Shown here: positions 86 through 37,921 of the stretch, one piece after another
Layout: each line of letters opens with the position of its first letter
Numbering within the stretch: the first letter of the stretch is position 1
IMG/VR virus record: IMGVR_UViG_3300045988_123646
Span: 1 to 37,921 of that record
DNA: 37,921 nt
DNA from: a virus
Direction: 5' to 3' (one strand)
The notes under the pieces: generated by a model
Seen by the model: the letters and a program-made list of their open reading frames with translations, nothing else
Told to the model about the DNA's origin: nothing
Database searches by the model: none
Translations under genes and position numbers: made by a program

Positions 86-328
86 ACGGTCAAAATGAAC
101 GCTGTTACAATTGGAGCAAACAGTACATATCTGCTGATTGATTTGCCGTACAAGTGCATTGCTGTGGATAATGTTTTTTGTGTCGGCATTTCAAACCTCG
201 GCAAGATTTTTAAATTTGCCATTCTGAAAAATAACACTTGGCTACAGTTTTCGACTCAGGATAAGACCGCATATACATTCGCAGACGGCGAGCAAATTAA
301 TGTGATTTGCTTGTACAAAATTAAATAA
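1..328 (+). CDS. Tail fibre / receptor-binding protein, C-terminal part (continuation of the ORF starting at 36062)
   Basis: Same reading frame as 36062..37921 (37,836 is divisible by 3). 1..85 duplicates the window end; stop TAA at 326..328. The whole protein is 700 aa. Confidence 0.8.
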   Translation, partial: TPYSTVTDKIKSASCTYKTIGDIVIVSATVKMNAVTIGANSTYLLIDLPYKCIAVDNVFCVGISNLGKIFKFAILKNNTWLQFSTQDKTAYTFADGEQINVICLYKIK

Positions 329-4171: not shown

Positions 4172-4415
4172 ACTCACAGTCGGTCAGGTTATGGGACTTG
4201 TTAAAAGATACTATTTGACCGATTGGAAAATTGAAGGAGCAAGGACGGGTAAAACAATTTGTACAAACTATTACCGCAGTAATATATATAACTCACCACT
4301 TTATTTTCACAAAGAAGTATCGTGCTTGACTATGGAAATTTACAGTACCAGACGAAAAGATGAAATACAAGACACAGTAAAATCAAGGGTTGTAATTTCA
4401 GTTTCAGGCGAATAA
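4158..4415 (+). CDS. Hypothetical protein
   Basis: ORF in the operon, overlapping the previous stop. No family recognised. Confidence 0.5.
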   Translation: MGENKLTVGQVMGLVKRYYLTDWKIEGARTGKTICTNYYRSNIYNSPLYFHKEVSCLTMEIYSTRRKDEIQDTVKSRVVISVSGE

Positions 4416-4433
4416 AAAAAGGAACAAAAAACT

Positions 4434-4925
4434 ATGAATTTGTATGAAATGACAGAAACAGCAAAACAGTTAATGCAGTTATTCGAGGATGGCGATATTC
4501 CCGAAGATGCTGTCAATGATACTCTTGAGGGTATCGGAGTGCAGGACAAGCTTGAAGATTACTGCAAGGTAATCAAATCTTTTGAGTATGACACGGATAA
4601 CATCGACAAAGAAATCGAAAGACTCAAGTCAGCTAAAGAACGCACGCAGAAAGCTATCGACAGGCTCACGAAAGCTGTTACCGAGTATCTCGCAACTACG
4701 AAGAGCCGTAAAGCAACGGCAGGTACATTTGCTTTATCATTGAGAAAATCGGAGTCGATTCAGATTACCGATGAAAGCAAAATCCCTGAAAAATTCATCG
4801 TTACCAAAACAACGGTTAAGACTTCCCCCGACAAAACCGCAATTAAGAAATTTCTTAAAGAGAACGAGGAAAACACGGTTGAAGGTGCGATGCTTATTGT
4901 CAACGAAAATCTTCAAATCAAGTGA
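4434..4925 (+). CDS. Siphovirus Gp157-like protein
   Basis: N-terminus MNLYEMTETAKQLMQLFEDGDI, a central coiled coil, and a position immediately upstream of the ERF gene all match the Gp157 family pattern. Confidence 0.65.
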   Translation: MNLYEMTETAKQLMQLFEDGDIPEDAVNDTLEGIGVQDKLEDYCKVIKSFEYDTDNIDKEIERLKSAKERTQKAIDRLTKAVTEYLATTKSRKATAGTFALSLRKSESIQITDESKIPEKFIVTKTTVKTSPDKTAIKKFLKENEENTVEGAMLIVNENLQIK

Positions 4926-5550: not shown

Positions 5551-5893
5551 CAGGGTAGTGTTACAAGGACGGACAACCCATCATCCCGAATTGACTTATA
5601 CAAAGCAAGGAACGGCTATACTCCGTTTTAGTATAGCCGTAAACGGCATCAATTCAACAAGCTTTTTTGACTGCTTTATGAAAGGCAAAGATGCCGAATC
5701 TCACGAATTGATGGGTAAAGGCACAGAGGTCTTCATCGTAGGACAACTGATGCAACGAAGGTATAAACGAAAGAATGGCGAAAATTCGTTTAAGACGGAA
5801 GTTTTTGCCGAGGAATGTAATTATATTACTTTTTCAGATTATGACGGTACAGGGCAAAATACGGCAAGAAATGAGGTGATATACGGTGGTTGA
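5543..5893 (+). CDS. ssb: Single-stranded DNA-binding protein (short OB-fold SSB)
   Basis: MLNRVVLQGRTTHHPELTYTKQGTAILRFSIAVN matches the SSB N-terminal pattern. It lacks the usual acidic C-terminal tip. Confidence 0.7.
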   Translation: MLNRVVLQGRTTHHPELTYTKQGTAILRFSIAVNGINSTSFFDCFMKGKDAESHELMGKGTEVFIVGQLMQRRYKRKNGENSFKTEVFAEECNYITFSDYDGTGQNTARNEVIYGG

Positions 5894-6809
5894 GGGATTC
5901 ATTATTTTTCCTCGATGGATGTACTCAGACGGAGTGCTGAACGGTGACCGTGACTACTGGTCGGTATGGTCTTATTTGATGTTCAATGTCAATTATTTTG
6001 ACACGCAAGTCATCATCAAAAATGAAGTTTTGACAGTACATAAAGACCAAATTTTCACAACTCGAAGAAAAATTTCAGAGGCAATCGGAGTGTCCGAAAC
6101 TAAGGTTGACAAGGCTTTGAAACTCTTTGAAAAAGTCGGTTACATAAAAATGAAGTCGGACAGGCGAGGACGGCTTATTTCCTTGACTTTTGAGGAATTG
6201 CGAACCAAACCGCATACAACACCCTCACAGGAAAATGTCAACTATTGTACTGACACGGTACAACCTACCGACAATCAAGAGTGTTGTAACGCAGACGGTG
6301 AAACATCGCATAGCAATGCGGAATTTGGTGGTTTTGAAACCGAAACAAAACCAAAACAAAACCAAAATAAAGCCGAAACAAAACCAAAACAAAACCAAAA
6401 CGCATACACAAAAGAAATAAATAAAAAAATAAATAAGGAAAATAAAGATATATTGTCGAGCAATCTCGACACCGTGAAATCCGTTGTCGATTACCTCAAC
6501 GAAAAGTGCGGAACGAAATACAAACACTCGTCAACTGAAACACAACGGTTGATAGTCGCAAGAATCAATCAAGGTTTCAGTCTTGAGGACTTCAAGCAAG
6601 TGATTGACAACAAGGTTTCCAATTGGGGCAATGACTCGCAGATGTCAAAATTTCTCAGACCGCAAACGCTGTTTAGCAACAAGTTTGAGAGTTACCTCAA
6701 TCAATCGGTTACCGTTCAGAACAAGTCGGTTGATTCTTGGCGAGATTCATCTTTTAGCCTTGAGGATGTCAGCGGTTTTCATCCGTTGCCCGATTTGCCC
6801 GATTTTTAA
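5886..6809 (+). CDS. Replisome organiser / replication initiator (winged-helix N-domain plus conserved phage C-terminal domain)
   Basis: The C-terminal block VVDYLNEKCGTKYKHSSTETQRLIVARINQGFSLEDFKQVIDNKVSNW...FLRPQTLFSNKFESYLNQ matches the Phg_2220_C-type domain. Start is GTG with GAGGTGA RBS. Confidence 0.75.
   Translation: MVEGFIIFPRWMYSDGVLNGDRDYWSVWSYLMFNVNYFDTQVIIKNEVLTVHKDQIFTTRRKISEAIGVSETKVDKALKLFEKVGYIKMKSDRRGRLISLTFEELRTKPHTTPSQENVNYCTDTVQPTDNQECCNADGETSHSNAEFGGFETETKPKQNQNKAETKPKQNQNAYTKEINKKINKENKDILSSNLDTVKSVVDYLNEKCGTKYKHSSTETQRLIVARINQGFSLEDFKQVIDNKVSNWGNDSQMSKFLRPQTLFSNKFESYLNQSVTVQNKSVDSWRDSSFSLEDVSGFHPLPDLPDF
6340..6400. repeat. Two exact 28-bp direct repeats (CCGAAACAAAACCAAAACAAAACCAAAA), period 33 bp, inside the replisome organiser gene; candidate origin iterons
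   Basis: Copies at 6340..6367 and 6373..6400. They encode ETKPKQNQNKA twice in the interdomain linker. Confidence 0.6.
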
Positions 6810-12054: not shown

Positions 12055-12771
12055 ATGATAGAACTGTATCAAGGTAATTGTCTTGAATTAATGAAAAACA
12101 TTCCAGACAACATCGCCGATATGATACTTTGTGATTTACCGTACGGAACAACACGATGCAAATGGGATTCAATTATTCCTTTTGAACCATTATGGCAAGA
12201 ATACAATCGGATAATTAAAGATAATGCCGCGATTGTTTTATTCGCACAGGAACCGTTTGCAACGAAATTAAGAAGTAGCAATTTGAAAATGTATAAATAT
12301 GATTGGATATGGCAGAAGCCGCAGGGAACAAATTTCTTGAATGCTAAAAATCAACCGTTGAAGAATTACGAAATCATCTGTGTTTTTGGTAAAAAAAAAT
12401 TGCGATATAAGCCATGTTTTACAAAAGGAAAACCTTATACATCAGGTGGCGGTAATGTCGGTGAAGCGTACGGTGGAGGTAAAAAAATTATTACACATAA
12501 TGAAGGTGTTCGGTACCCAACAAGCATTCAAAAATTTAATGCGATTCAGAACACAAAAAGATTTCATCCGACACAGAAACCAGTTGACTTGCTTGAATAC
12601 TTAATCAAAACATATACAAACGAGGGTGATTTAGTCCTTGATAATTGCATGGGAAGTGGAAGCACAGGTGTTGCCTGCGTAAACACAAACCGAAACTTTA
12701 TCGGAATAGAGCTTGATGAAAAGTATTACAAAATAGCAGAGAAAAGAATAAATTCAGTGATTAAAACCTAA
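12055..12771 (+). CDS. DNA methyltransferase 2 (N6-adenine/N4-cytosine type), orphan
   Basis: Catalytic motif CDLPYG, HPTQKPVDLLEYLI, and AdoMet motif VLDNCMGSGSTG. No adjacent restriction gene. Confidence 0.9.
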   Translation: MIELYQGNCLELMKNIPDNIADMILCDLPYGTTRCKWDSIIPFEPLWQEYNRIIKDNAAIVLFAQEPFATKLRSSNLKMYKYDWIWQKPQGTNFLNAKNQPLKNYEIICVFGKKKLRYKPCFTKGKPYTSGGGNVGEAYGGGKKIITHNEGVRYPTSIQKFNAIQNTKRFHPTQKPVDLLEYLIKTYTNEGDLVLDNCMGSGSTGVACVNTNRNFIGIELDEKYYKIAEKRINSVIKT

Positions 12772-12788
12772 AGGACATTATTAATGTC

Positions 12789-12817
12789 TTGACAAACACA
12801 TAATTGCAATGTATCAT
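12789..12817 (+). promoter_or_regulatory. Promoter of small-RNA unit 1 (TTGACA, 17-nt spacer, TATCAT)
   Basis: TTGACA at 12789..12794 and TATCAT at 12812..12817. Confidence 0.6.
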
Positions 12818-12823
12818 AATGTT

Positions 12824-12916
12824 GTGTAAGGTTTTGTTTTTTACTTACGCAAGCATAAACTATTAGTTCTTAAACTGGAAAAGGCTCAGCTTTTGGCTGA
12901 GTCTTTTCTGTTGTTT
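12824..12916 (+). ncRNA. Small-RNA unit 1 (about 90 nt), paralogue of unit 2
   Basis: No ORF with an RBS. A 5-prime hairpin UUGUGUAAG / CUUACGCAA (12822..12852) has a U-rich 13-nt loop. The terminator is GGCTCAGC-TTTTG-GCTGAGTC plus a T-tract (12883..12916). Confidence 0.5.
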
Positions 12917-12930
12917 ACTATACAAAGAGC

Positions 12931-12959
12931 TTGACTGCAAGCCGAAAAAGTAGTATCAT
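12931..12959 (+). promoter_or_regulatory. Promoter of small-RNA unit 2 (TTGACT, 17-nt spacer, TATCAT)
   Basis: TTGACT at 12931..12936 and TATCAT at 12954..12959. Same architecture as the unit 1 promoter. Confidence 0.6.
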
Positions 12960-12963
12960 AGAA

Positions 12964-13070
12964 GTGCGGAAGTTTGTTTTTTTAATTTCTACTGTGGTAG
13001 ATTAGTTTTTTTATCCTTTCTTCCGTATAGATGACCTCGCTTATGTCATAGTGTGCGAGGTCATCTTGCT
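12964..13070 (+). ncRNA. Small-RNA unit 2: solitary Cas12a-repeat RNA (candidate RNA anti-CRISPR or orphan crRNA)
   Basis: Own promoter and no ORF with an RBS. Contains the V-A repeat-like sequence, a U-rich spacer-like 3-prime flank (13003..13028), and a perfect 12-bp hairpin AGATGACCTCGC / GCGAGGTCATCT (13029..13066). Confidence 0.55.
12967..13002 (+). CRISPR. Solitary type V-A (Cas12a) CRISPR repeat-like unit (single copy, no array, no cas genes)
   Basis: CGGAAGTTTGTTTTTTTAATTTCTACTGTGGTAGAT. The last 19 nt match the conserved Cas12a crRNA handle AAUUUCUACU-loop-GUAGAU. From memory, this differs from the FnCas12a handle AAUUUCUACUGUUGUAGAU at one loop base only. The stem UCUAC/GUAGA is intact. 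Confidence 0.7.
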
Positions 13071-13090
13071 TGACTATCAACACGCAAAAA

Positions 13091-13189
13091 TTGCGTGCTG
13101 TTTAAATTGTCATCATAATTTTTTATATATTAACTATTTACCTATGCAGGAAAGGCACACCGTTTATGGTGTGCCTTTTTTGTTTTTTT
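13091..13189 (+). ncRNA. Possible small-RNA unit 3 (weak promoter TTGCGT, 17-nt spacer, CATAAT; about 60-nt RNA; strong terminator)
   Basis: Terminator AAAGGCACACC-GTTTAT-GGTGTGCCTTT plus a T-run (13151..13189). No ORF. The promoter is only a moderate match. Confidence 0.35.
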
Positions 13190-13373
13190 ATGACTGTTCT
13201 GCTGACTGTTCTGCAATTTGCAGAAGTTTTTCGACAACTAACTTTTCGACATAAATCGGTGGGTTATGTTTTCCCGACTCCCAATCTTGTACAGTACGAT
13301 ACGGAATAAGTAACAAATCCGTCATTGCTCGCTGTGTTAATCCTGCCTTAATGCGTGCCTCTTTAATTGTCAT
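13188..13373 (-). CDS. Small XRE-family HTH regulator (Aca-like or antitoxin-like)
   Basis: MTIKEARIKAGLTQRAMTDLLLIPYRTVQDWESGKHNPP is a classic HTH with the WExGxxxP motif. The C-terminus has the duplication AEQSAEQS. Confidence 0.75.
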   Translation of the reverse strand: MTIKEARIKAGLTQRAMTDLLLIPYRTVQDWESGKHNPPIYVEKLVVEKLLQIAEQSAEQS

Positions 13374-13525
13374 CGTCCTTATCAACTCCTTTCATGTAAC
13401 CATCAATCCACACTACCTTGCCTGTTTGGTATCTTCTGAAATGTCCTCGAACCTGAAACACACCTTTGGGATTGTGACCGTCTGACCGTCCGCATTACCC
13501 GACCCGAAGGTCGGTCACTCTGCGA

Positions 13526-13750
13526 TTAAGCGATAATTTCAATGCCCCTTACATCGGAAAAAGTTACATTTGGATTCTTCGTGCCAAGCGTGTATTCATC
13601 ACTTTCATCATCTTTAAATATTACTTCTGCAAGACCAATGCACTCATTAAATTCGTTGTAAGTGGCGACCACCTCATATATTCCGCTTCCATCTTCGAGC
13701 CACGCTCCTTTTTTAAGATTCTCGAAGTCATTAAATGTTCTAATTTCCAT
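13526..13750 (-). CDS. Strongly acidic 74-aa protein (candidate anti-defence protein)
   Basis: RBS AAAAGGAGAAAAAA upstream of the ATG. About 17 Asp+Glu versus 6 Lys+Arg. No family recognised. It is the first gene of a minus-strand two-gene unit. Confidence 0.6.
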   Translation of the reverse strand: MEIRTFNDFENLKKGAWLEDGSGIYEVVATYNEFNECIGLAEVIFKDDESDEYTLGTKNPNVTFSDVRGIEIIA

Positions 13751-13805
13751 AGTGTTTTTTCTCCTTTTTTGGTCTGTGGGTGTTGCCCTGTGTTTTGATT
13801 TGTTG

Positions 13806-13839
13806 ATTATAATACACTACACGGATTTCGTGTTGTCAA
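13806..13839 (-). promoter_or_regulatory. Promoter/operator of the minus-strand acidic-protein/HTH operon
   Basis: The minus strand reads TTGACA ACACGAAATCCGTGT AG TGTATTATAAT. The -35 is consensus and is followed by the palindrome ACACG-N5-CGTGT. The -10 candidates TATTAT and TATAAT are spaced 19 or 22 nt away, which is suboptimal. Confidence 0.5.
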
Positions 13840-13872
13840 TAGCTTTTTTGAATTTTTTTGAAAAAATATTTT

Positions 13873-13916
13873 TTCGCTGACTGTTCGCTGACCGTTCGCC
13901 GTGTGCGGTTAGCGAA
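13873..13916. repeat. Four contiguous 11-bp iterons (three direct TTCGCTGACTG / TTCGCTGACCG / TTCGCCGTGTG, one inverted CGGTTAGCGAA) upstream of terS
   Basis: Read directly, 59 nt upstream of the terS start. Candidate pac-related or regulator-binding array. Confidence 0.55.
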
Positions 13917-13974
13917 TTTTTTTTTGCTTATATAGTATTTAATTTAAACATTATAGTGCAAAAGAGGTGTGACA

Positions 13975-20980: not shown

Positions 20981-21364
20981 ATGGACTACATTACAATAGC
21001 TGATGCAATTGATATGATTGATGCAACAGTACCAAACAACCGCACGGAAGACGAAAAGATTGCTTGGCTTGACTCTCTCGACAGAATGGTTAAGAACGAA
21101 GTCTTTGATACGCACGAAGGTTATGAAGATACAGACTTCATCGGATATGACGAGAACACATCACGCAATCAGCCGTTACTAATTCCGAAACCGTATGCAG
21201 TAGAGATTTACAAAGCATTTCTTGAACTTCAAATACACCTCGTCAACAAGGAGTATGACAGATACAACGCATCATCTGCACAGTACAGCAACCATTATGA
21301 CTCTTTTGTCAATTGGTGGCATTGCAACCATATGCCCAAAGAGATTGCTCATATAACATTTTAG
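20981..21364 (+). CDS. Putative head-tail adaptor/connector protein
   Basis: 127 aa, first gene after the capsid terminator. The N-terminus MDYITIADAIDMID resembles gp6-like connector proteins. Confidence 0.4.
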   Translation: MDYITIADAIDMIDATVPNNRTEDEKIAWLDSLDRMVKNEVFDTHEGYEDTDFIGYDENTSRNQPLLIPKPYAVEIYKAFLELQIHLVNKEYDRYNASSAQYSNHYDSFVNWWHCNHMPKEIAHITF

Positions 21365-27268: not shown

Positions 27269-30200
27269 ATGACTTTTCGTGATTTACTCAAAAAGAAAAA
27301 TAATGATAATGACTCTCAATCGACAAGTTCGGTTGAGAGTTCTTCCGCAACTATTGACGATACACAAAGCAAAAATAAAACAATGAGAAGTACACTCGGA
27401 CAGAGTGATAGAGCAAACAATAAATCAATGCTTGACTATCTTCGTACACAAGAGGCGGTTGGTCAGGAAGAAGAGGAACAGACTGACACAGCACAAGCCT
27501 CAGCAGGTGTTGATATTATGTCAAGGTACTATAATTCATCTCAGCTTGCAAACAAAAACGCACAAAATGAATTGAGTAAAAGCACCTTTGACTCAATGAA
27601 AAATAAGGTTGATAATATTGCAAAGTATTATAACGGCTCAAATAAATTGTCTGATGATATGGTGTCAGCTTATAAAACTTTATCAGATAATGGTTATAAA
27701 AGCCTTGAAGAAGTCGAGGAAAATATACTTGACGGTGATTTACCAAAAGATGTTACAAGTGCTTACAAGTATATTACTGACAATCTTAATAAAATTTCAT
27801 CTACTGACCAACAGTCAACCGATACTCTTGGTGCGTTAGCAAAACAGTATGTAGCTAAACACGGCTATACAGAGGACACGGAAGATTATCAAGCTTATAT
27901 TCAAAACGCAGAAGATGTTGAAAACTACTATAAAAATTCAGCAAAAGAAATTCAAAATGCAATGTCAGATTTTGACACAGAACAGGAATACAAATCTGCT
28001 GTTGCACAGGCAGAAGAGGATGCCAAAACTTCCGATGACTTACAGAAGGAATATGACAAGAAGAAAGCCGAGTATGACAGCACTTGGGGCGATTTCAACA
28101 AGGAATATGCCGAAATTGGCGGTAGTTATAATAACAATCCCTTCACTACGCAGGGCAAAAACGCAAAAAAGAAATTGCAAGAACGCACCGACCAAAGAAC
28201 CGAACTCGATAACCTACAGAAAAAAATTGACCAAAAAAAGGAACTTGAAAACGAAAAGAAATACTATACTGATTTCCGCAAGCAAAATCCCGAAGTGGCA
28301 AAAACTCTTGATGCTTACTATGATATGCAGTCATATGAAGAGGAACACTCCAAAGATTCATTTGATACATATAACAAGGATGCTTTAAAAGAGAAACTCG
28401 AAAAAGGCAAATCGCCGACAGATTCCTTATATACCGATGAAGAGAAAAAAGCTATTGAAACTAACTTTAATTCGCTTAAAACTCTCGATGGTTGGAATGT
28501 TGACCAAATTTATAAATACTACAAACGAGCAAAAGACAGAGAAAAAGCTGAGAAAGAAAATGAAAATATTAAAGATTTTGCTGATAAACACCCGATTGCA
28601 AGTACGGCTATAAGTACGCTTAATATGATTCCGTCAGCTTTTGAATCCTCACCAAAACAAGTTGCATCTGTTGTCGATAAATGGACAGGCGGTGACGGAT
28701 ATTATAATCCCGAGGAATCTGCCGTGTACCAAAACAATTTACTGCAACAAAAAGTCGCAAGTAATATAGATAATCCGTTAGGAAGATTGGCTTACCAACA
28801 GGGAGTCAGCCTTGTTGATAACGCTATTCGTATGGGTATCGCATATGCAAATCCTGCTGTCGGATTGTCTACGATGGGTGCGGAAGCAGCAACACAGGGA
28901 TTTAATGATACTGTTGAAAATGGCGGTTCTGTAGAACAGGCACTTTTCACAGGTCTTGCTTATGCAGGTGTTGAAGTGCTTACCGAAGGTGTATCACTTG
29001 GTAAACTGAAAAGTTTTAAAAATGGCGGTGTAAAGGAATTCAAGAGCATTTTAAAGAATGCAGGAAAGCAGATTTTGACCGAGGCATCGGAAGAAGTATC
29101 CGCAACACTCCTTGATAGTGTAGCAGATGAAATCATTAACGGTAGCTTATCTCAGCTTGAGACAGAGTATGACAGATATATTGACAGCGGTATGTCTGAA
29201 ACCGAGGCAGGACAGGCAGTAATGCTGAATTACGGCGGTCAGATTATACAGGATGCAATTGGCGGAGCGTTGATGGGCGGAATTTCGGGTACTGCCGTCA
29301 ATACATCTCAGTACAGACGAAATATTAAGGCAGGAAAATCTATATCCTCTCTTAATAACATAGACACAGTTAAGAATCTTGCCAAACATTACGGTCTTAA
29401 TAACAGCGTTACCGATTATGAAAGCAATCCGACTGATGCAAGACTCGGAGCTTTGCAGAGCGAGGCATACGAAAAAGCAACAGAAAGTATGCCAACAGAA
29501 AAAGACTTTAAAAGAGTTATCAAAAAAGCAAACCTTGCATCGGATGAAAATGTTGTTGCAAACAAACTTACAAACGGTGAAAATTTAACAGACGATGACC
29601 TCGAAAAAATCAAAAAGTCTGAAAGTTTAAAGTCACTTCTTGCAAACGATGTTGTCAATCAGGCAAAGAGTGCAAGATTTAATCAGCAGACTGCATTGCT
29701 TTCCGCAGACACAAAACTGTTCACACCGAGCCTCATTGAATTTAACGCTGAGAAAAGTGATGCTGATGCAAATCTTAACAATGCCGAAACGCTCGACAAG
29801 TTTCTTTCGGAAAACTCTAAAAATATGACAATCAACACCGATACGGTCGATAAGATGAAAGATGCTTATAACGGCTTGGAAGATAAAATCGAACCTGATA
29901 CTTTCGCTATGGAGTATGCGAGATTTTTCAATCAGGGTGTCCGTGCGGTTGCGTTTCAGAGCTTGAATAGCACAGTATCACAGTTACCGTACAATGTACA
30001 AGTATCGGCTTATGAAGATGGCTTAAATAAGTACACAACGGCACTCAAAGCTGGCAACGCTCTTTCAAAATTACAGCAGGAATGGAAAGACAAAACAAAC
30101 GGTTACGCTAAAGGTACGGTTGACACTTCCGCTCTTGAAGGTATCAAACTTAACGATGAACAGAAAGCATCTGTTGATTATATCTCAGGCTATGCTAATC

Positions 30201-33200
30201 ACGGCTTGAATGTTAAGTTTTATGCATCACGGGCTGACGAAAACGGTGTGTATATAGACGATAACGGTGGTTATGACTCTTTGACTAATACCATAATGAT
30301 TGATATTAACGCAAAGAAGGAAACCATCAACGATGTTATAAGTAAAGGTGCGATGATGTCAACTTTCGGTCACGAACTTTCCCACCTTGCTGAACACGCA
30401 CCCACAGAGTATGCAGAGCTTTCAAAAGCTATTCAGGATGCCGTTGGTGCTGATACATTCAACGATGCAGTCGATAAGCATTATTCTATACTTGAAGAAC
30501 GCAACAGCGACAAATGGCAAAAAATGTCAGAGGATAAAAGACAAATTTATGCGACAAGAGAGGCAGTTGCTGAATTTTCTTCTGACCTTGTTAACAAAGC
30601 AAAAATCCTTGAAAAAATGTCAAAAGAGAATCCTTCTGTTGGTAAGAAGTTTATCAATCTCATTAAGAAGGTTATTAGCAAGATTAAAAGCATTCTCAAG
30701 GATAACAGAGGTATGACCGATGAGGCAAGACTACTTGCTAACGACCTTGCAAGCAATGCTGAAAAACTGCAGTCAATTGTTGATAAGTACGAAAAAGCTG
30801 TCATCGAAGGACTTAAAAATCAGAATGCAAAAGTTCATACAAATAAATCTTCTGTAAAAGAAAATAATACAAAAACTCAAAGTAATACAAGAACAGGAGA
30901 TTTTCTTACAGAAAGAGAAAGAACGCTTGTAGCAACACACAATATAAGTTCACAGAACCTTATGAATCTTATCAACGATTTTGACGGAGCAGGTTTACCA
31001 GTACCGAGCATTGCAATTGAGAAAGCTGATAGTGTTCACGATGATTTTGGCGATGTTACTCTGTTGTTTAGCAAGGACACGATTGACCCACAGAATAACA
31101 GTAATAACAATGTGTACAGCCGTGATGCGTGGACAAGTACCTTTCCACAGACGGAATACAAAATTAACGCTGAGGGCCTTAAAGCAATTGCGAAAAAGTT
31201 AGATTTATCTGAGAATTATCTCGAAAGTAATATATTTAACACTAATGATTTAAATGGAATTAAGCGTAAATTTTTAAATGACAGATATGTACGAAAAGCC
31301 TTCATTGAAGAAAACAATATTGAGGTTACCCCTGTTGCATATGAAAAAAAACCTAAATTCTCATTTTTCGCAAACCCAACTGTCAAGTCTTTTATCAAAA
31401 ACAACAACTGTACATTTGATAGACTTGTTAATGACAAAGAATTTCGAGATGCTTTTTTAAAGGTTGCTAAAGAGTCAATTCGACTGCGGATTGCGTTGCG
31501 ACAAGTCGAAAGATTTGAAAACACTCTTGATGATTGTGCAAAATCTAAAGATGTGTACAGCGATTCCAAAGAGTCAATTGAATACTGCATTGAATATGCC
31601 AAAGGTAATGCTAAAAAAGAAGTGACTGAATACTCATATGAAGAAGGTATAGAAAATGCTATCAATGAGCATAAAGCGGAATTTGAAAAGTATATAGACG
31701 ATATGCTTTCTGAAAGCGGTGTCATCGGTGATAAATATATTATCAGAGATGATGTTAACTTGTATAACAATGACGGCAGTAGGAAATCTTTTGAACAGAC
31801 ACATTACGATTACAATATTGATAATGTAGTCAAAGCTATGAAAGTAGGAAGGAGTGCTATCAGTAATTCTTTTTTTGGTGGAATAGAATACGCTAAAACA
31901 ATATCAGCCAAAAATCTCAATAGCATTGAAGAAATTAAAAGTAATGAACATAAGTTACAAGAATTATCGGCTGATGAAATCGAAACCCAAAAGGAAAACA
32001 TTTCCAATCTGCTTGCTCCGATAATAAGAGAGATTGCGGACAGTAGTAAATACAGCAACAGAGAATTTGACGATGGCTATATAGAGGCAAGTAATAGTGT
32101 TGTGGATGCGTTTAAAAGGTACAATACTATTGACGGAGTGTATAAATATCTTAAACAGTATTATGGTAACCTCAAAAAAAGCACGATTAATAAACTTTTC
32201 AAAGCGAGAGATGAGATTGCCGAAATGCCAGTAAGATACTTCGAGGCAAAGCCACACAGAGTTGTAGGATTTGACGAGGTAATGGCGGTGGTTATTCCTG
32301 CTGATGCAGACGAAAAATTAAAAACTGCTCTCAAAAAAATGGATATTCCCATGTATGAGTATGCTGACGAAAGTCAAAGAGCAGATGCTACGCACAAAGC
32401 AATCAACACGGAATATACAGACAAATCGGGTGTAACTTATGATAATCTTCAATTCTCAAGTAACAGAGGTGACTTTCTCAGCAACCGAGAGGCACTCGCA
32501 CAGGCTCTTGAAACAACAACAATTAACGCATCAGAGCGAAACACCGTCAAGACCTATCAACAGGGACTTGAGCAAATGAACAAACTCAACGATAAGCTTA
32601 ATGAGATTGACAGCAAAATTAAGACTATCAATGCCAAAGACAACATCTCTAAGAGCGACAAAGCGGAGATTGCATCGCTTATGAAAGTTAAAGCGGAAAC
32701 CGAAGAAAAAATCGTAAACAAAGACAAAAATCTTTTAAAACTGGAGTCAACTGAGGCAATGCGTAACATCTTGAAATACGAAACTTCTAAGAAAATTGCA
32801 AGGGTGCGTGAGCAGAAGAATGAGCGTATTGCTGAAATCAGAAAGCAGGAAACGCAGAAACGCAAGGATGCCGTTGCAAAACTCCGTAAACAGAAGAATG
32901 ATAAGATTGATGATATTATCGTGAAAAACCGTGAGAAACGAAAAGCAGATGCCGAAAAACGCAAGGATAATCAGGATTGGTCACACTCAATCAGTGAAAT
33001 CAAGAAATACTCGAAGAAATTGTTAGATGCTGTCTTGCATCCGACAGAAAAGATGTATATTCCATACGGCTTGAATGAGCCTATCAAGAGCATTACATCA
33101 ACTCTTCTTGATTCAATCAATCTCGATAACGATACTAAGATGTCAGACAATCTGAGAAAACTCTCTCAACAGCTTGAACAAGTCAATCAAAGCGATGAGC

Positions 33201-35995
33201 ATTACGGTGATTTTTACAATGCTTACAATGAGGAAATTATCGAGGAAATAAAAGGCTTTGCCGATTACCTTGATGATAGACTTGAAGGTGTCAAAATCAA
33301 GAAGCAGACACAGGGAGAAAGCCTTATCGAAGGACTCACACACGAAGAGGCTAAGGAAATTGAACAGATTGTCAAAGATGTGTACAACGCAACAAGGGAT
33401 GCTGTTAAGCAGATTGGTAGACAGGATGCTATTACTAACTATGAGTCAGGTTTAAGGATTATTAATCAGACAAGAGAACTCGGTGATGTTAAGCTTAATG
33501 TAATGGACTCATTACTTGACCAAGTATTATCACCGATGCGACTTATGGCGAAGTACACAGGCTACAATGCGGATGCCGAGCTTATGTATCACATCAATGC
33601 TCTTAACGAAGGTACAGAAAAGTACAATATGTTTAAGATGCTTGCCGAAAAGCCTCTCAATGATTTTATCAAAGAAAATCCAAAGGAGTACGAAAGCTTT
33701 AAAAACGATGTCATCGAAATCAAATACCGTGACAATAAGAATGTTGCACAGACTGTCAAAATGACAAAATCACAGGGATTGCAGATACTGATGTCTTGGA
33801 CAAGAGAACATACAGAAGACTCTCACCTTGACCATATGGAGCGAGGCGGTGTTACTCTGCTTGATGCCGAACAGATAAGTAAAGGCAATTATGAAAAGGC
33901 ATTTGCTCAAAGAAAGACTATCAGAGGCATTAATTTAAGTTTCATATCGGCTGTGCAGAGTCAAATGGGAGAGTTTGAAAACCATTATCGTGAACTTGCT
34001 GAAACTCTCTTCAATGAGGTTTCAAATGCTTACATCAATGACACTTCTGCAATTCTTCTTCATCGTGACATTGCAACCGAAAGATACTACATACCTTTTG
34101 CTGTTAATAAAGATTTTCTTTCAACGGAGATTGACGGTCTAAAGTACGATGCGACCATTGTCAACAAGGGTATGCTGAAATCTACGAAAAGAAACGCACC
34201 ACAGGCTCTTAACATTGCAGGACTCGACAGCGTTATATCGAAGCATATAAGAGATGTCGGACAGTATTACGGTTACGCTGTGCCTATTCGCAATCTTAAC
34301 AAGGCACTCAATGTTAAGTTGTTTGACACAAACGAAAACGGTAACAAGATTGCAACAGACTCCGTCCGAAACTCCCTCAGAGAAACCTTTAATTCTGACA
34401 AACCTATTCAGTTTATCGAACAGGTAATGACTGATTTACAGACATCAAGAAAATCAAACTCTCAGACCGAAAAAGCAATCAATAAGATTGTTAGGGCAGT
34501 CAGAGATAATATGATTACATCGGCACTCAAAGGCTCTGTATCGGTAGTTATTAAGCAGGGTGCATCATTGTACACAGCATCAAGCATTCTTTCAATGCGT
34601 TCCGTATCTGTCGGTGCAGTCAAAGGCATTCAGCAGATTGCTCGCAAAGGTGGTTGGAAACAGCTTACAGATGAGATTGATACACACACGGCAGGTCATT
34701 ATATGCGTAGAATTGGCTTGTCATCGATGGAAATTGAGGCAATGAAAGACTCTTGGCTCGGTAAGAAACTGCCCACAGCACTCAACCCTGCAAAATGGAT
34801 ACAGGGTACAGACTGTATTACAACAGCGTTGCATTGGGTGGCTACTAAAGAAGAAGTAAGCCGACTTTATAAAGAACAGGGAAAAGCTGACCAAATAGGC
34901 TCTGATGAATATTTTGACGAGGTCACAAAGTTATATGACCAAATCCTTGAAGAAACACAGCCTATGTATGACAGTTTGCATCGAGGCGAGATACAGAAAA
35001 ATTCAAACGAGTTGTTAAAGTCTGTATTTATGTTCAAAACTCAGCCATTGCAGAACACAGGTATTTTGTATGATGCAATTATGGATTATCAGGCAAACAA
35101 GGACAATGCAGAACTTCGAGATGTCAAGAAACAAAAACTTGCAAAAGCAGTTTCTTCACAGATGATGTCAGCACTTACTTTCGTTGCAATGACCTTTATT
35201 GCATCTCTCGCTCTTCATAAACCTGAACGCTACAAAGATGAAAATGATGAGGTCACTCTTTCATCTGTTCTTGAAAGACTCGGTATTGACTGGGTAGAAA
35301 CAGGATTTAGCGTTCTTGTTCCGATTGGTGGTGCTGAACTTGCATCTTTCATTGAAAATCAGATTAACGGTAAAGATTATGATTTTGCTTCTGACAATGT
35401 TGTGTCAATGCTCAATGACTTTACTTCATCAATCGGTGACTTTAACCAGAATGTTATTGTTGCTCTTGCACAAGGTAATTTTGACCTCGACAAAGCAAAA
35501 GATGCCCTATGGGGATTATCTGTCGATGGTCTTGCATTTTTCAGAGGATTCCCATTGAAGAATTACAGCAATATCATTAACGGTATCTTCTCTAATTTGT
35601 CGGATGCAATCAGCGGTCACAGCACTTACTTCGGTTCATCGGGCGGTCGAAAAGGTAGTGAATACGCAAACTCATATGATGTACTTATTGACAATAACCC
35701 CGAAAAGGCAAAGCAACAGCTTGAAACATTCTACAATGAGAAGTACGAAGAGCAGATTGCAAAAGGCGAAACCACAACAGAGGCTAAGAAAAAAGCACAG
35801 ACCTCTGTCCGTACTGCACTAACTACGCAGTATAAGAAAGAGTATCAAAAAGCATTTCTTAATAATGACCGTGACACAATGCAGAAAATCAACAAGAAAC
35901 TGCAGGAGTCAGGCTATATGAAGTGGGAAGGCAAATCATTGTCAACCGTGTTAGGCGAATGGACTAAGTCAGCTCAAAAAGATTCAAGCAAATAA
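27269..35995 (+). CDS. Giant 2,908-aa polyvalent-type virion protein with an HEXXH metallopeptidase-like domain
   Basis: One uninterrupted ORF with an AAGGAGA RBS. It has coiled-coil regions, glycine-zipper/hydrophobic segments (GGALMGGISG, MMSALTFVAMTFIASLAL), and HELSH at 30371..30385 in the context MMSTFGHELSHLAEH. Confidence 0.75.
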   Translation: MTFRDLLKKKNNDNDSQSTSSVESSSATIDDTQSKNKTMRSTLGQSDRANNKSMLDYLRTQEAVGQEEEEQTDTAQASAGVDIMSRYYNSSQLANKNAQNELSKSTFDSMKNKVDNIAKYYNGSNKLSDDMVSAYKTLSDNGYKSLEEVEENILDGDLPKDVTSAYKYITDNLNKISSTDQQSTDTLGALAKQYVAKHGYTEDTEDYQAYIQNAEDVENYYKNSAKEIQNAMSDFDTEQEYKSAVAQAEEDAKTSDDLQKEYDKKKAEYDSTWGDFNKEYAEIGGSYNNNPFTTQGKNAKKKLQERTDQRTELDNLQKKIDQKKELENEKKYYTDFRKQNPEVAKTLDAYYDMQSYEEEHSKDSFDTYNKDALKEKLEKGKSPTDSLYTDEEKKAIETNFNSLKTLDGWNVDQIYKYYKRAKDREKAEKENENIKDFADKHPIASTAISTLNMIPSAFESSPKQVASVVDKWTGGDGYYNPEESAVYQNNLLQQKVASNIDNPLGRLAYQQGVSLVDNAIRMGIAYANPAVGLSTMGAEAATQGFNDTVENGGSVEQALFTGLAYAGVEVLTEGVSLGKLKSFKNGGVKEFKSILKNAGKQILTEASEEVSATLLDSVADEIINGSLSQLETEYDRYIDSGMSETEAGQAVMLNYGGQIIQDAIGGALMGGISGTAVNTSQYRRNIKAGKSISSLNNIDTVKNLAKHYGLNNSVTDYESNPTDARLGALQSEAYEKATESMPTEKDFKRVIKKANLASDENVVANKLTNGENLTDDDLEKIKKSESLKSLLANDVVNQAKSARFNQQTALLSADTKLFTPSLIEFNAEKSDADANLNNAETLDKFLSENSKNMTINTDTVDKMKDAYNGLEDKIEPDTFAMEYARFFNQGVRAVAFQSLNSTVSQLPYNVQVSAYEDGLNKYTTALKAGNALSKLQQEWKDKTNGYAKGTVDTSALEGIKLNDEQKASVDYISGYANHGLNVKFYASRADENGVYIDDNGGYDSLTNTIMIDINAKKETINDVISKGAMMSTFGHELSHLAEHAPTEYAELSKAIQDAVGADTFNDAVDKHYSILEERNSDKWQKMSEDKRQIYATREAVAEFSSDLVNKAKILEKMSKENPSVGKKFINLIKKVISKIKSILKDNRGMTDEARLLANDLASNAEKLQSIVDKYEKAVIEGLKNQNAKVHTNKSSVKENNTKTQSNTRTGDFLTERERTLVATHNISSQNLMNLINDFDGAGLPVPSIAIEKADSVHDDFGDVTLLFSKDTIDPQNNSNNNVYSRDAWTSTFPQTEYKINAEGLKAIAKKLDLSENYLESNIFNTNDLNGIKRKFLNDRYVRKAFIEENNIEVTPVAYEKKPKFSFFANPTVKSFIKNNNCTFDRLVNDKEFRDAFLKVAKESIRLRIALRQVERFENTLDDCAKSKDVYSDSKESIEYCIEYAKGNAKKEVTEYSYEEGIENAINEHKAEFEKYIDDMLSESGVIGDKYIIRDDVNLYNNDGSRKSFEQTHYDYNIDNVVKAMKVGRSAISNSFFGGIEYAKTISAKNLNSIEEIKSNEHKLQELSADEIETQKENISNLLAPIIREIADSSKYSNREFDDGYIEASNSVVDAFKRYNTIDGVYKYLKQYYGNLKKSTINKLFKARDEIAEMPVRYFEAKPHRVVGFDEVMAVVIPADADEKLKTALKKMDIPMYEYADESQRADATHKAINTEYTDKSGVTYDNLQFSSNRGDFLSNREALAQALETTTINASERNTVKTYQQGLEQMNKLNDKLNEIDSKIKTINAKDNISKSDKAEIASLMKVKAETEEKIVNKDKNLLKLESTEAMRNILKYETSKKIARVREQKNERIAEIRKQETQKRKDAVAKLRKQKNDKIDDIIVKNREKRKADAEKRKDNQDWSHSISEIKKYSKKLLDAVLHPTEKMYIPYGLNEPIKSITSTLLDSINLDNDTKMSDNLRKLSQQLEQVNQSDEHYGDFYNAYNEEIIEEIKGFADYLDDRLEGVKIKKQTQGESLIEGLTHEEAKEIEQIVKDVYNATRDAVKQIGRQDAITNYESGLRIINQTRELGDVKLNVMDSLLDQVLSPMRLMAKYTGYNADAELMYHINALNEGTEKYNMFKMLAEKPLNDFIKENPKEYESFKNDVIEIKYRDNKNVAQTVKMTKSQGLQILMSWTREHTEDSHLDHMERGGVTLLDAEQISKGNYEKAFAQRKTIRGINLSFISAVQSQMGEFENHYRELAETLFNEVSNAYINDTSAILLHRDIATERYYIPFAVNKDFLSTEIDGLKYDATIVNKGMLKSTKRNAPQALNIAGLDSVISKHIRDVGQYYGYAVPIRNLNKALNVKLFDTNENGNKIATDSVRNSLRETFNSDKPIQFIEQVMTDLQTSRKSNSQTEKAINKIVRAVRDNMITSALKGSVSVVIKQGASLYTASSILSMRSVSVGAVKGIQQIARKGGWKQLTDEIDTHTAGHYMRRIGLSSMEIEAMKDSWLGKKLPTALNPAKWIQGTDCITTALHWVATKEEVSRLYKEQGKADQIGSDEYFDEVTKLYDQILEETQPMYDSLHRGEIQKNSNELLKSVFMFKTQPLQNTGILYDAIMDYQANKDNAELRDVKKQKLAKAVSSQMMSALTFVAMTFIASLALHKPERYKDENDEVTLSSVLERLGIDWVETGFSVLVPIGGAELASFIENQINGKDYDFASDNVVSMLNDFTSSIGDFNQNVIVALAQGNFDLDKAKDALWGLSVDGLAFFRGFPLKNYSNIINGIFSNLSDAISGHSTYFGSSGGRKGSEYANSYDVLIDNNPEKAKQQLETFYNEKYEEQIAKGETTTEAKKKAQTSVRTALTTQYKKEYQKAFLNNDRDTMQKINKKLQESGYMKWEGKSLSTVLGEWTKSAQKDSSK

Positions 35996-36061: not shown

Positions 36062-37921
36062 ATGAAATCAAGAACGATGAAGTTTACGCTTGACTGCTCC
36101 AAAGTGGGGAATCAGTTATGCATAGATGGTATCAGACAGGGCGATGCCAACTCTATTGTATTCATCATTTCGCTTGCAAACGGCATCAATTTACTTGATG
36201 TTGTTGCGGGGAAAGAGGAATCTGTTGTTGTGACAATGTACGGCAAAAAAACCGATGGCACAACAATTGTCCGTGATTGCGGAATTAACGAGGACGGCAA
36301 CATCACATACACTATCCACACTCAGGATACAACTTGTGTCGGCATCGTCAGTTATCAGCTTGTTGTTACATCAACAAGAGAGAAAATACTCGCGTCCCCT
36401 GTTTTTAGTACAATGGTCGAAGAACGAAATCTCTTCAAGACTTATACAGTATTGACAGCACGGCCTGATGACTGGGCAGATGGTTACGATAAGTATTATT
36501 ACTATGAAGATGGCAGATTTTACAAGCTGAACCGTTTTGAGAGTGAGCTTGCTCCCAAATGGGTAATCAACAAGTATTACTCTGTCAATGACAATGAAGT
36601 TGAAAGCACATCAGACTTTGATGCCCTTGCATATGCTCTCCTTAGAGCAAAGCAATACTCAGACAGAACCGAGGAATACCTTGCAGAAGTTAAGAAGAAA
36701 GCAGATAAAAGTACCACGCTTGCAGGATACGGTATCACAGATGCCCTACAAAACGCAAAAGGCACAGTAAGTACAAACAACCTTGCCGATAATTGCGTGT
36801 CCTCTAACAAGCTGTCAGCGGATGTTCGGGCAAACATTAACAGCAAAGCTGAATCAGCGAAAGTCAGTCAGCAGTTATCACTCAAGGCAGATGCATCATC
36901 CGTATATACTAAGTCTGAATCTGATGCACTTCTTAAAGCCAAAGCAAACTCGGCAGATGTTGATGCATCTGTCAAAACAATCAACACAACAATTGCGAAC
37001 AACCAAAAAAGTGTGAATGCAAGCCTTAAAAGCCTCAACACAGCATTAACCAATAAAGCCAATACAGATGTTGTCAATGAGGTAAAACAGCGTGCAGAGT
37101 CAAATACAACGGCAATAGAGCTTAAAGTAAGCCGTACCGACTTTAACAACACCGTGACCAATCTCACAAATAGCATTAACGGAAAAGCTGACAGCAATTC
37201 CGTTTATTCAAAGGTTGAAACCGATAATTCGCTCGGTGAAAAAGCAGATAAGGCAGATGTTGATACCTCACTAGCAAACAAAGCTAATCTTGTCAGCAGC
37301 TCGAATATTTTTGATTTCGATGATTGGGCGAAAGGATTGCAGGGGCTTACTACTCCGGTTTACAGAGGCACTCTCGACAAAGTAGATTATAGCGAAAAAT
37401 CAATTACTTTTACCGGTAATGAAGCTCGTTCGTACACTAACGGATGGAATTCGTCAGCACCGCAATCTATGAGAATAGCAGTTAAGCCAAATACAAAATA
37501 TTTATTTTCGTGCTTACCATCGTCAAAAAAATGCGAAGCAGATGTTTTCTTGAATGGAATTACAGCTAATCACTTTGAGCTAAAAGGGGGCTTTGGTTCA
37601 TTTACAACGGCAGAGGACACAACTTATATTTTGATTCGGTTTGTTTATTCCGAAATAGGATTTTTCAAGGTGTCCAAAATTATGATCGCCGAAAAAGAAT
37701 CAATCTACTTACCAAATACAGTCGCAGAAGGCGTCCCAGAGGTTGCAAACGAGGTTTTTGCGTTTGAAAAGACAACCCAAGCTTCACTTGACGGTAAATA
37801 CGATTCAGCGAACATAGAGAGCGGTACATCAACACTCACACCGTATTCAACCGTCACCGATAAAATCAAAAGTGCAAGCTGTACATATAAGACGATTGGT
37901 GACATCGTAATCGTCAGTGCA
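36062..37921 (+). CDS. Tail fibre / receptor-binding protein, N-terminal 620 codons (continues at 1..328)
   Basis: AGAGGTGA RBS. The BppU-like N-terminal domain (MKFTLD...) is followed by a long run of K-A-D/S-containing helical repeats (SKAESAKVSQQLSLKADASSVYTKSESDALLKAKANSADVD). The ORF has no stop before the window end. Confidence 0.75.
   Translation, partial: MKSRTMKFTLDCSKVGNQLCIDGIRQGDANSIVFIISLANGINLLDVVAGKEESVVVTMYGKKTDGTTIVRDCGINEDGNITYTIHTQDTTCVGIVSYQLVVTSTREKILASPVFSTMVEERNLFKTYTVLTARPDDWADGYDKYYYYEDGRFYKLNRFESELAPKWVINKYYSVNDNEVESTSDFDALAYALLRAKQYSDRTEEYLAEVKKKADKSTTLAGYGITDALQNAKGTVSTNNLADNCVSSNKLSADVRANINSKAESAKVSQQLSLKADASSVYTKSESDALLKAKANSADVDASVKTINTTIANNQKSVNASLKSLNTALTNKANTDVVNEVKQRAESNTTAIELKVSRTDFNNTVTNLTNSINGKADSNSVYSKVETDNSLGEKADKADVDTSLANKANLVSSSNIFDFDDWAKGLQGLTTPVYRGTLDKVDYSEKSITFTGNEARSYTNGWNSSAPQSMRIAVKPNTKYLFSCLPSSKKCEADVFLNGITANHFELKGGFGSFTTAEDTTYILIRFVYSEIGFFKVSKIMIAEKESIYLPNTVAEGVPEVANEVFAFEKTTQASLDGKYDSANIESGTSTLTPYSTVTDKIKSASCTYKTIGDIVIVSA
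37837..37921. repeat. Direct terminal repeat, right copy
   Basis: Exact 85-nt copy of 1..85. Confidence 0.9.

Follow-up and report, generated by a model that had tools for sequence, protein, structure and literature searches.

The viral record IMGVR_UViG_3300045988_123646 was analysed over its full length of 37,921 nucleotides (nt), here called the window. On the plus strand, starting at 12931, lies a short unit that resembles a gene for a single CRISPR RNA (crRNA) of type V-A (Cas12a) and is considered here as a candidate RNA anti-CRISPR. It begins with a sigma-70-type promoter at 12931..12959 (-35 TTGACT, 17-nt spacer, -10 TATCAT), scored by scan at 10 of 12 consensus positions, and transcription is predicted to start near 12965-12967. 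The 5' leader GUGCGGAAG and then a U-rich tract, UUUGUUUUUUU, occupy 12964..12983, as placed by the predicted fold and the alignment of copies. The pseudo-repeat (psiR) at 12984..13002 is, by its sequence and a pattern scan, a complete type V-A crRNA 5'-handle, AATTTCTACTGTGGTAGAT, with the layout AAUU-UCUAC-UGUG-GUAGA-U. It is followed at 13003..13027 by the pseudo-spacer (psiS), UAGUUUUUUUAUCCUUUCUUCCGUA, the last 8 nt of which fall in a predicted stem with the leader.

Downstream, all on the same strand, the fold contains a perfect 12-bp hairpin at 13029..13066, made of AGATGACCTCGC (13029-13040) and GCGAGGTCATCT (13055-13066). The terminator scan found no T tail on it, and it is thus not the terminator of the unit. 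A second small hairpin in the fold (CACGCAA-AAA-UUGCGUG and then a variable U tract, 13081..13097) may be a weak terminator; its loop and tail differ among copies. The strong intrinsic terminator of the unit, 17 pairs and then a T run by scan and fold, is at 13146-13183/13193 and also sits just beyond the stop codon of a convergent helix-turn-helix (HTH) gene. In the minimum-free-energy fold, leader positions 12964-12972 pair with the 3' end of psiS (13020-13028) and enclose the handle hairpin, and the transcript folds far better than shuffled sequences (z = -7.2). The resulting leader-psiS stem, or clamp, is a predicted structure, since the variants among 44 copies give it one-sided support only, with one broken pair, and this falls short of covariation proof. 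If processing resembles that of V-A pre-crRNAs, the leader would be removed by Cas12a.

A preliminary description, made from the letters of the sequence, had named the promoter, the handle with its UCUAC/GUAGA stem kept, a U-rich spacer-like stretch (TAGTTTTTTTATCCTTTCTTCCGTAT, 13003-13028), the 12-bp hairpin and the lack of an open reading frame (ORF) with a ribosome-binding site. Reading 12600-13400 bore out all of its sequence statements on the unit. The only mechanical ORFs across the region are GTG-started frames of 33 aa (-) and 67 aa (+), and the ORF list has no credible ORF crossing it. The repeat was also correctly described as a single copy with no array and no cas genes: the handle pattern AATTTCTACTNNNGTAGAT (any loop, at most one mismatch) has a single match in the window and none in 100 dinucleotide shuffles, and no cas genes were found among the window ORFs of this 37.8-kb genome. 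The claim of a 36-nt V-A repeat at 12967..13002 held in part. Its 3' 19-25 nt are repeat-like, but the 5' half, GCGGAAGTTTGTTTTTT, is unlike the V-A repeats that were fetched. The unit has the 3'-terminal 19-20 nt of such a repeat (AAUUUCUAC-loop-GUAGAU, a 5-bp stem and a 3-5-nt loop) and does not have the full repeat of about 36 nt, reiterated next to cas12a-cas4-cas1-cas2. Among covariance models, Rfam has no family matching the unit at either its gathering or its E-value thresholds. A blastn search of the region against phage GenBank sequences also returned no match. The notion that psiS is a degenerate second repeat was rejected, as its terminal TAGAT is not conserved and is CCGTAC or CCGTAAAG elsewhere.

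The exact handle 19-mer is found as a single copy outside arrays three times in 596 Gb (185,579 representative genomes), and two of these three occurrences read as coding sequence. About 4 chance occurrences are expected in 596 Gb. Because the observed number is close to chance expectation, the probability of a chance 19-mer in 38 kb is about 1e-6 or less, which is negligible.

The preliminary description had treated the solitary unit with its own promoter as a feature of one phage. It is a conserved module. At least 44 copies, in two phage backgrounds, were gathered from human-gut viral and metagenome contigs (cited below by L numbers). The exact handle is present in 17 IMG/VR contigs, and the handle plus 9 nt in 29 metagenome contigs, of which almost all come from the human gut; a scan with a psiS 18-mer revealed the second phage group. 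The handle loop is UGUG in the first group (variant A) and UAUG in the second (variant B). An invariant core, CGGAAG-U tract-handle-TAGTTTTTT(T)ATCCTTTCTTCCGTA, runs through the copies while their surroundings change. Related phages have an alternative, unrelated promoter (TTGACAGATGCCC...TGTATAAT) at an equal distance from this core. Within the leader, CGGAAGTTTG is invariant in the 44 copies except for three single-base changes. The handle stem never varies in them, whereas the loop does. Among 22 distinct variant-A copies, psiS (13003-13026) is free of substitutions and varies only in length (T7/T6), and the 39 nt downstream of it have 17 variable columns. The conservation of psiS is not an ascertainment artefact, because its positions 10-24 were not fixed by any search pattern. 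Variant B has the same psiS despite a different loop and terminator.

The 12-bp hairpin behaves differently. It carries many single-nucleotide changes, including a compensatory C-G to U-A change in L006 and L017 (CTCGT...ACGAG), and it is missing from L002 and from variant B, so it is dispensable. In L002 the hairpins are deleted and the terminator is fused directly to psiS. In variant B (L028, L031, L033, L112 and others) a canonical terminator directly follows psiS; variant B is thus the minimal form of a viral unit composed of psiR, psiS and a terminator under its own predicted promoter. A metagenome scan for the handle plus TAGTTTTTT returned the phage unit itself and three handle-less matches outside the gut (L056/L068, L085/L091/L133 and L119/L137), which were discarded as low-complexity look-alikes without AAUU.

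A related arrangement was seen in another viral contig, L011 (IMGVR_UViG_3300045988_169034, 77.5 kb). At 158-296 (-) it has two V-A handles about 100 nt apart, with loops UGUU and UGUG. Both lie under a single TTGACA-17-TATAAT promoter and are paired with different spacer-like sequences, and behind the second there is a terminator. Judged from these elements, L011 contains a viral crRNA-like array of two units.

The window is a complete temperate phage. An exact 85-nt direct repeat is present at both ends (1-85 and 37837-37921), and the genome is therefore complete and circularly closed at 37,836 bp. Its ORFs include an integrase, a cI-like repressor, an ERF/SSB/Gp157 recombination module, replication genes, two methylases, a GH25 endolysin, a terminase, a P22-like portal and a 2908-aa PBECR5 protein. 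The nearest relatives of the terminase are phages from human faeces. The exact integrase was found on gut metagenome contigs of 50-100 kb, where the prophage adjoins SpoIIE, RuvX, a zinc-ribbon protein and rpoC. In public sources the flank proteins carry the names Ruminococcus bromii or Ruminococcoides intestinale, and one flank-bearing contig also has the unit (L192 and L141 are one record). From these prophage flanks and the unit-carrying contig, the host of the phage is assigned to the R. bromii group, being R. bromii itself or a close relative as far as the flank sequences indicate.

A Cas12a attributed to R. bromii (RbCas12a) has been characterised, with the crRNA loop UAUU and the protospacer adjacent motif (PAM) YYN, and its activity reportedly does not depend on the loop bases (PMC9409102). 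The phage handle loops differ from UAUU by one or two bases. Cas12a loci were sought with three protein searches, using an archaeal Cas12a, a 32-sequence profile and LbCas12a (a query 100% identical to a synthetic dLbCas12a construct), and the contigs of 10 Cas12a proteins were then fetched. The loci obtained belong to Treponema (L150, L151, L154, L155), Bacteroidetes-like sequences (L158-L160), a 32%-GC metagenome-assembled genome labelled 'Ruminococcus sp.' (L156) and the further contigs L149, L152, L153, L157, L164 and L167. Several of their array repeats equal the psiR handle outside the loop, namely L161 (loop UAUC), L164, L152 and L149 (UAUU), and L167 and L154 (UGUU). L167, which has GerA as a neighbour, is the best repeat match to psiR, at 24 of 25 nt.

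The protein P0395 (L161-L163) is probably RbCas12a: it is 46.256% identical to LbCas12a, against 46.26% published for RbCas12a. Its locus consists of cas12a-cas4-cas1-cas2 and an array of up to 48 repeats in the longest copy, with loop UAUC rather than the published UAUU, and is preceded by M78-peptidase and DUF3368 genes. The flanks of L161 are 50-54% GC compared with 42.6% beside the prophage, which makes the species assignment of this locus doubtful. A tetranucleotide comparison gave no species assignment for the fetched Cas12a loci. The preliminary description had suggested a search for V-A arrays with this repeat in candidate hosts. In the exact-handle scan of the 185,579 representative genomes, one Gracilibacteria genome and one archaeon were the sole sources of UGUG arrays, and no Firmicute array was found. 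No arrays with UGUG or UAUG loops were found in IMG/VR either.

A separate observation concerns the genes preceding cas12a. In two Firmicute-type V-A loci an XRE-HTH/M78-peptidase (ImmA-like) gene stands directly before cas12a on the same strand (L161 8552-9993; L162 733-2303; L164 1380-2423), and in L161 and L162 a DUF3368 gene precedes cas12a as well. This gene order suggests that cas12a in the L161/L162/L164 loci is under protein-based control instead of control by a CreR RNA. No CreR was found in the fetched Cas12a loci.

Solitary repeat units (SRUs) in phages were established in 2023 as RNA anti-CRISPRs (Racrs), and three of them that act on a V-A system, RacrVA1-3, inhibit MbCas12a (Camara-Wilpert et al. 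2023, PMC10651486). Like RacrVA1-3, the present unit is solitary and repeat-like, and it lies in a mobile element outside any CRISPR-cas locus, without array or cas genes and near genes that may be acr/aca-like (genes resembling those of anti-CRISPR, Acr, and Acr-associated, Aca, proteins). RacrVA1-3 are expressed as small RNA; for this unit a small RNA is predicted from the promoter, the terminator and the fold. In contrast to the Racr SRUs compared here, which match a known repeat over its full length at about 97-100% identity, only the 3' half of the unit is repeat-like. TGGTAGAT is not in the text part of the Racr SRU table (PMC10651486). Racr action needs no specific spacer, while psiS of the unit is as conserved as the handle.

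The closest architecture is that of CracrVA1, the subject of a 2024-2026 preprint (Liu et al., bioRxiv 10.1101/2024.10.29.618823). CracrVA1 is a single V-A psiR with psiS and a terminator from an uncultured phage, and Ruminococcus Cas12a processes it to a 19-nt handle and a 21-nt guide. It represses P_cas12a through a 10-nt match next to a TTTA PAM, out-competes immune crRNAs and acts as an anti-CRISPR in vivo (bioRxiv 10.1101/2024.10.29.618823). The unit is like it in having a single V-A psiR with a 19-20-nt handle, a fixed psiS, a terminator and its own promoter in an uncultured Caudoviricetes phage, and the genus of its host is that of the cognate effector of CracrVA1. Some published Cracrs are near acr-like genes or in multi-unit sets. 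Unlike for CracrVA1, which is defined by both, no P_cas12a match and no CreR similarity were found for the unit in the loci and metagenomes searched. The leader-psiS clamp, the extra 12-bp hairpin and a handle-less companion small RNA (sRNA) belong to this unit, with no counterpart noted for CracrVA1 in the passages compared. The comparison covered the described architecture, and the unit may be CracrVA1 itself or one of the 219 candidates mentioned with it.

Two further kinds of crRNA-like element are comparable. The host CreR/CreA RNAs are degenerate mini-CRISPRs, and in CreR partial psiS pairing makes Cas12a bind without cutting (bioRxiv 10.1101/2023.03.10.532045). They too combine a psiR that has a handle with a psiS; in them the handle is identical to the cognate repeat and the psiS pairs only partly with its target. 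CreR/CreA are chromosomal, adjoin cas genes and serve the host, whereas the unit is phage-borne and no CreR counterpart of it was found. The second kind is the phage-borne mini-CRISPR array, which reportedly (the work being attributed to Faure and colleagues in 2019) carries spacers fully matching competing viruses and usually at least two repeats. The unit shares with these arrays a repeat and a spacer in a virus without cas genes, L011 being a two-unit case, and differs from them in having one repeat and no convincing protospacer.

We consider it fairly probable that the unit is a Cas12a-loading, crRNA-like RNA anti-CRISPR of the Racr/Cracr class, in which Cracrs, also named viral crlRNAs, are the members with a fixed psiS. 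As far as sequence comparison can tell, this best explains the observed anatomy, the modular conservation pattern, the phage context and the genus of the host. The preliminary description had proposed that the unit acts as an RNA anti-CRISPR, either as a decoy or as a guide. Its anatomical side stood, as the anatomy matches that of validated Cas12a RNA anti-CRISPRs; for the guide side no target was found in the loci and viral contigs searched.

By analogy with the experiments on RacrVA and CracrVA1, the unit would be transcribed, bound and processed by Cas12a, and inhibitory. The constitutive-looking sigma-70 promoter would drive a transcript of about 65 nt or longer, consisting of the 18-20-nt leader, the full Cas12a handle and the invariant U-rich psiS of 22-25 nt, followed by the hairpins and the terminator. 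In R. bromii-group cells with a type V-A system, Cas12a would bind the handle, remove the leader by its own RNase activity and retain the handle and psiS as a guide. Cas12a would thereby be drawn off immune crRNAs, by decoy or titration. Because psiS is under strong purifying selection, it is probable that the loaded complex also binds a PAM-flanked site of partial match and leaves it uncut, as CracrVA1 does at the cas12a promoter.

The class of RNA anti-CRISPRs is already published, and the unit would be an added member with an unusual anatomy (an invariant psiS for which no cas target could be identified, together with a leader clamp, a companion sRNA and a neighbouring ribozyme) and not a new principle. 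It would extend the Racr/Cracr class in that its psiS is strongly conserved yet matches no cas promoter in the loci examined, which would point either to some other regulatory target or to an as yet obscure constraint on decoy RNAs. R. bromii has a keystone role in starch degradation in the human gut, and temperate phages of this species are very common. If active, the unit would be a compact RNA of natural origin that can shut down or redirect Cas12a in one of the major gut commensals, with bearing on gut phage-host dynamics and on Cas12a engineering of R. bromii.

Several results weigh against the anti-CRISPR interpretation. None of the roughly 10 fetched Cas12a loci could be tied to the R. 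bromii lineage of the phage, and the atypical GC content of the L161 flanks means that even the P0395 locus is not shown to come from the host lineage. Among the 100 or more spacers in the fetched V-A arrays, 0 match the phage family. The handle is near-cognate rather than identical, given the lack of a Firmicute representative array with the exact UGUG handle. A PAM with the psiS seed is present at no promoter of the fetched loci, including P0395 (L161-L163) and L167, and no CreR-like element with the same 9-nt seed was found in 241 M metagenome records. The acidic protein encoded beside the unit has no match in Pfam, PHROGs, PADLOC or the PDB and is no known Acr.

A narrower version of the anti-CRISPR interpretation, a strict Cracr, is possible but doubtful. 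Here psiS would mimic a host CreR, Cas12a would repress its own promoter or that of a safeguarding toxin, and the anti-CRISPR effect would depend on the guide. The likeness to CracrVA1 in architecture and host genus speaks for it, as does a psiS that is invariant amid changing surroundings; moreover, the length of the seed TAGTTTTTT(T) is close to the 9-10 PAM-proximal bp by which Cracrs are defined. Upstream of cas12a in L149-L167, though, there is no PAM-flanked seed of at least 8 nt. The best match (8 nt, in L164) is at the 5' end of the HTH-M78 gene and is equalled by 7% of shuffles. The T7/T6 length polymorphism shifts the register past position 9, and the metagenome scan for the handle plus TAGTTTTTT gave no host CreR. 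At least 9 PAM-proximal psiS nt in a cas or creT promoter were thus not found in the loci sampled, and the true cognate locus may lie outside this sample.

It is improbable that the unit has nothing to do with CRISPR and is an ordinary phage sRNA or attenuator, with the handle hairpin and U7 as a weak terminator, or a relic repeat. The handle hairpin is indeed extended by AAUU/AGUU and then followed by U7, the companion unit 1 has a similar leader and U tract without a handle, and Rfam is silent on the unit. Against this, all 16 specified handle positions are exact, including AAUU and the terminal U, which would occur by chance with a probability of about 1e-5 or less. The constant stem and variable loop in 44 copies are what Cas12a recognition predicts, and a relic would not retain its own promoter through two promoter replacements.

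A psiS that tunes the lysogeny and early genes of the phage itself, either within host Cas12a or as plain antisense RNA, is slightly less credible still. In this case psiS would be no mimic of a cas promoter, unit 1 and a nearby twister ribozyme would share the same RNA-based control island, and the phage would be using the effector of the host CRISPR system to control its lysogeny and early genes. Within the phage genome, the three sequences that match psiS best all lie antisense to translation start regions: TTCA|TAGTTTTTTATCTCCTTTC at 2277 (2273-2298, +) at the start of orf102, upstream of the integrase; TTCA|TAGTTTTTTGTTCCTTTT at 4434 (4413-4438, -) at the start of gp157 in the recombination gene cluster; and a site at about 13749-13770 (+) at the start of the acidic ORF. 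Those at 2277 and 4434 have a YYN PAM, the PAM reported for RbCas12a, and a 9-nt seed, compared with 0.2-0.35 expected (P about 0.02-0.05). This test was post hoc, however, and the local-alignment scores of psiS are within the shuffle distribution, with 4 of 40 shuffles reaching 26. In the simplest reading psiS is by composition an anti-Shine-Dalgarno sequence and a U tract, which explains the likeness, and without Cas12a to hold the guide, matches of this length are too short for binding.

The preliminary description had also considered psiS a guide against a competitor element or a host locus. This gained no support from the search of 2.9 M IMG/VR viral contigs, in which no TTTV-flanked protospacer was found. 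The exact psiS 18-mer has 14 matches outside the phage family, 0 of them with a TTTV PAM. Most of these matches end at 18-20 nt and are in unrelated contexts, and their number fits chance because the 18-mer is a low-complexity T-rich word. The best of them is a 21/22 match with a TTC PAM in an unrelated 7.7-kb viral contig (L036). Neither the window nor the host flank contains a full-length PAM-flanked psiS target, a check that did not extend to host genomes. Guide hypotheses, whether Cracr or hijacking, are thus not supported, and the true host locus may be unsampled. A hijacking crRNA, meaning a one-spacer mini-array that arms host Cas12a against a competing phage, plasmid or host locus, is just as hard to credit as self-regulation: Cas12a needs only a handle and a guide, L011 has two handles with different spacers under one promoter, and the L036 match exists, but a U-rich guide cleaves poorly and this one is fixed across many phage isolates, unlike arms-race spacers.

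The unit has a variable neighbourhood. Upstream, at 12055..12771 (+), an orphan N6/N4 DNA methyltransferase is encoded (Pfam N6_N4_Mtase, E = 2e-30; PADLOC MTase_II, E = 7e-85), which is likely an anti-restriction gene. Between it and the main unit lies the companion sRNA gene unit 1 (12789..12916, +), whose strong promoter, TTGACA-17-TATCAT at 12789-12817, agrees with the consensus at 11 of 12 positions and whose intrinsic terminator is at 12876-12910. Its leader forms a 9-bp hairpin that encloses a U-rich loop. In leader and U tract it is similar to the main unit, but it contains no Cas12a handle. Unit 1 is kept directly upstream of the main unit in both phage backgrounds (e.g. L028 4460-4590). 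The loop of its terminator varies and the stem changes are mostly one-sided. The hairpin of unit 1 with AAGCAUAAAC and a 'spacer' loosely recalls a class 1 repeat, by look alone.

The 17-mer CTTACGCAAGCATAAAC of unit 1 (12844-12860) is the exact reverse complement of codons for VYACVR, which we take to be a conserved N-terminal motif of HK97-type portal proteins. The sole 17-mer match that was translated, a 481-aa ORF in L171 (7773-9218), reads STVYACVRLL. About six groups of IMG/VR 17-mer matches share a similar sequence context and are, to judge from it, probably the same gene. The phage's own P22-like portal is without the VYACVR motif. The 17-mer may reflect coincidence or an antisense relation to competitor phages.

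Downstream and convergent with the unit is an operon on the minus strand. A 61-aa HTH_3 (XRE-type) protein is encoded at 13188..13373 (Pfam HTH_3, E = 5.5e-7; PHROG repressor families) and is also 61 aa in relatives; it is Aca-like by position only. The other gene, at 13526..13750, encodes an orphan acidic protein of 74 aa (pI 4.1), an Acr candidate by context only. The 74-aa ORF and the HTH_3 gene may represent an acr/aca-like co-location in which the putative acr has no known-Acr match, and a single-sequence structure model of the acidic ORF was unusable (pLDDT 50). The exact acidic protein occurs in 183 collection blocks, and each of the five loci inspected has both unit 1 and the main unit. 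The two operon genes are separated by a 140-nt gap that holds a type-P5 twister ribozyme (13466..13524, -), which scores 45.5 bits with Rfam RF02684 (gathering score 37.6). The twister is beside the unit in six related loci (L001, L003, L006, L008, L012 and L014; 45.5-52.6 bits) and could uncouple the stabilities of the two mRNA halves.

In L190-L194 (locus 830-2370) five extra small ORFs of 163, 90, 82, 60 and 63 aa, the first weakly DnaJ-like, lie between the small terminase gene and the acidic ORF, at the head of the acidic/HTH operon. The equivalent of this cassette in the window, 13750-13969, is only about 220 nt. Such a variable small-ORF cassette is typical of accessory or anti-defence islands. 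The preliminary description had held that the place of the unit beside the acidic-protein/HTH operon fits an anti-defence island. A variable accessory region with an orphan methylase agrees with this, although the acidic ORF is no known Acr; as a whole, the methylase, the sRNAs and the acidic ORF with its HTH operon look like an accessory or anti-defence island.

Three minor features were seen elsewhere in the genome. ARAGORN called a 95-nt tRNA-Glu(CUC) at 21094-21188 (-), within the structural gene block; its length and position are unusual and the call may be a false positive. The 2908-aa ORF (27269-35995, +) has a PBECR5 (Barnase/EndoU/ColicinE5-like) nuclease domain at residues 1215-1325 and probably encodes a giant virion-associated protein. 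At 6337-6413 (+), within the ORF 5886-6809, there are five 11-nt tandem units similar to AAACCAAAACA. The counterpart of this ORF in relatives has the Pfam domain Phg_2220_C, and the iteron-like repeats may mark the replication origin.

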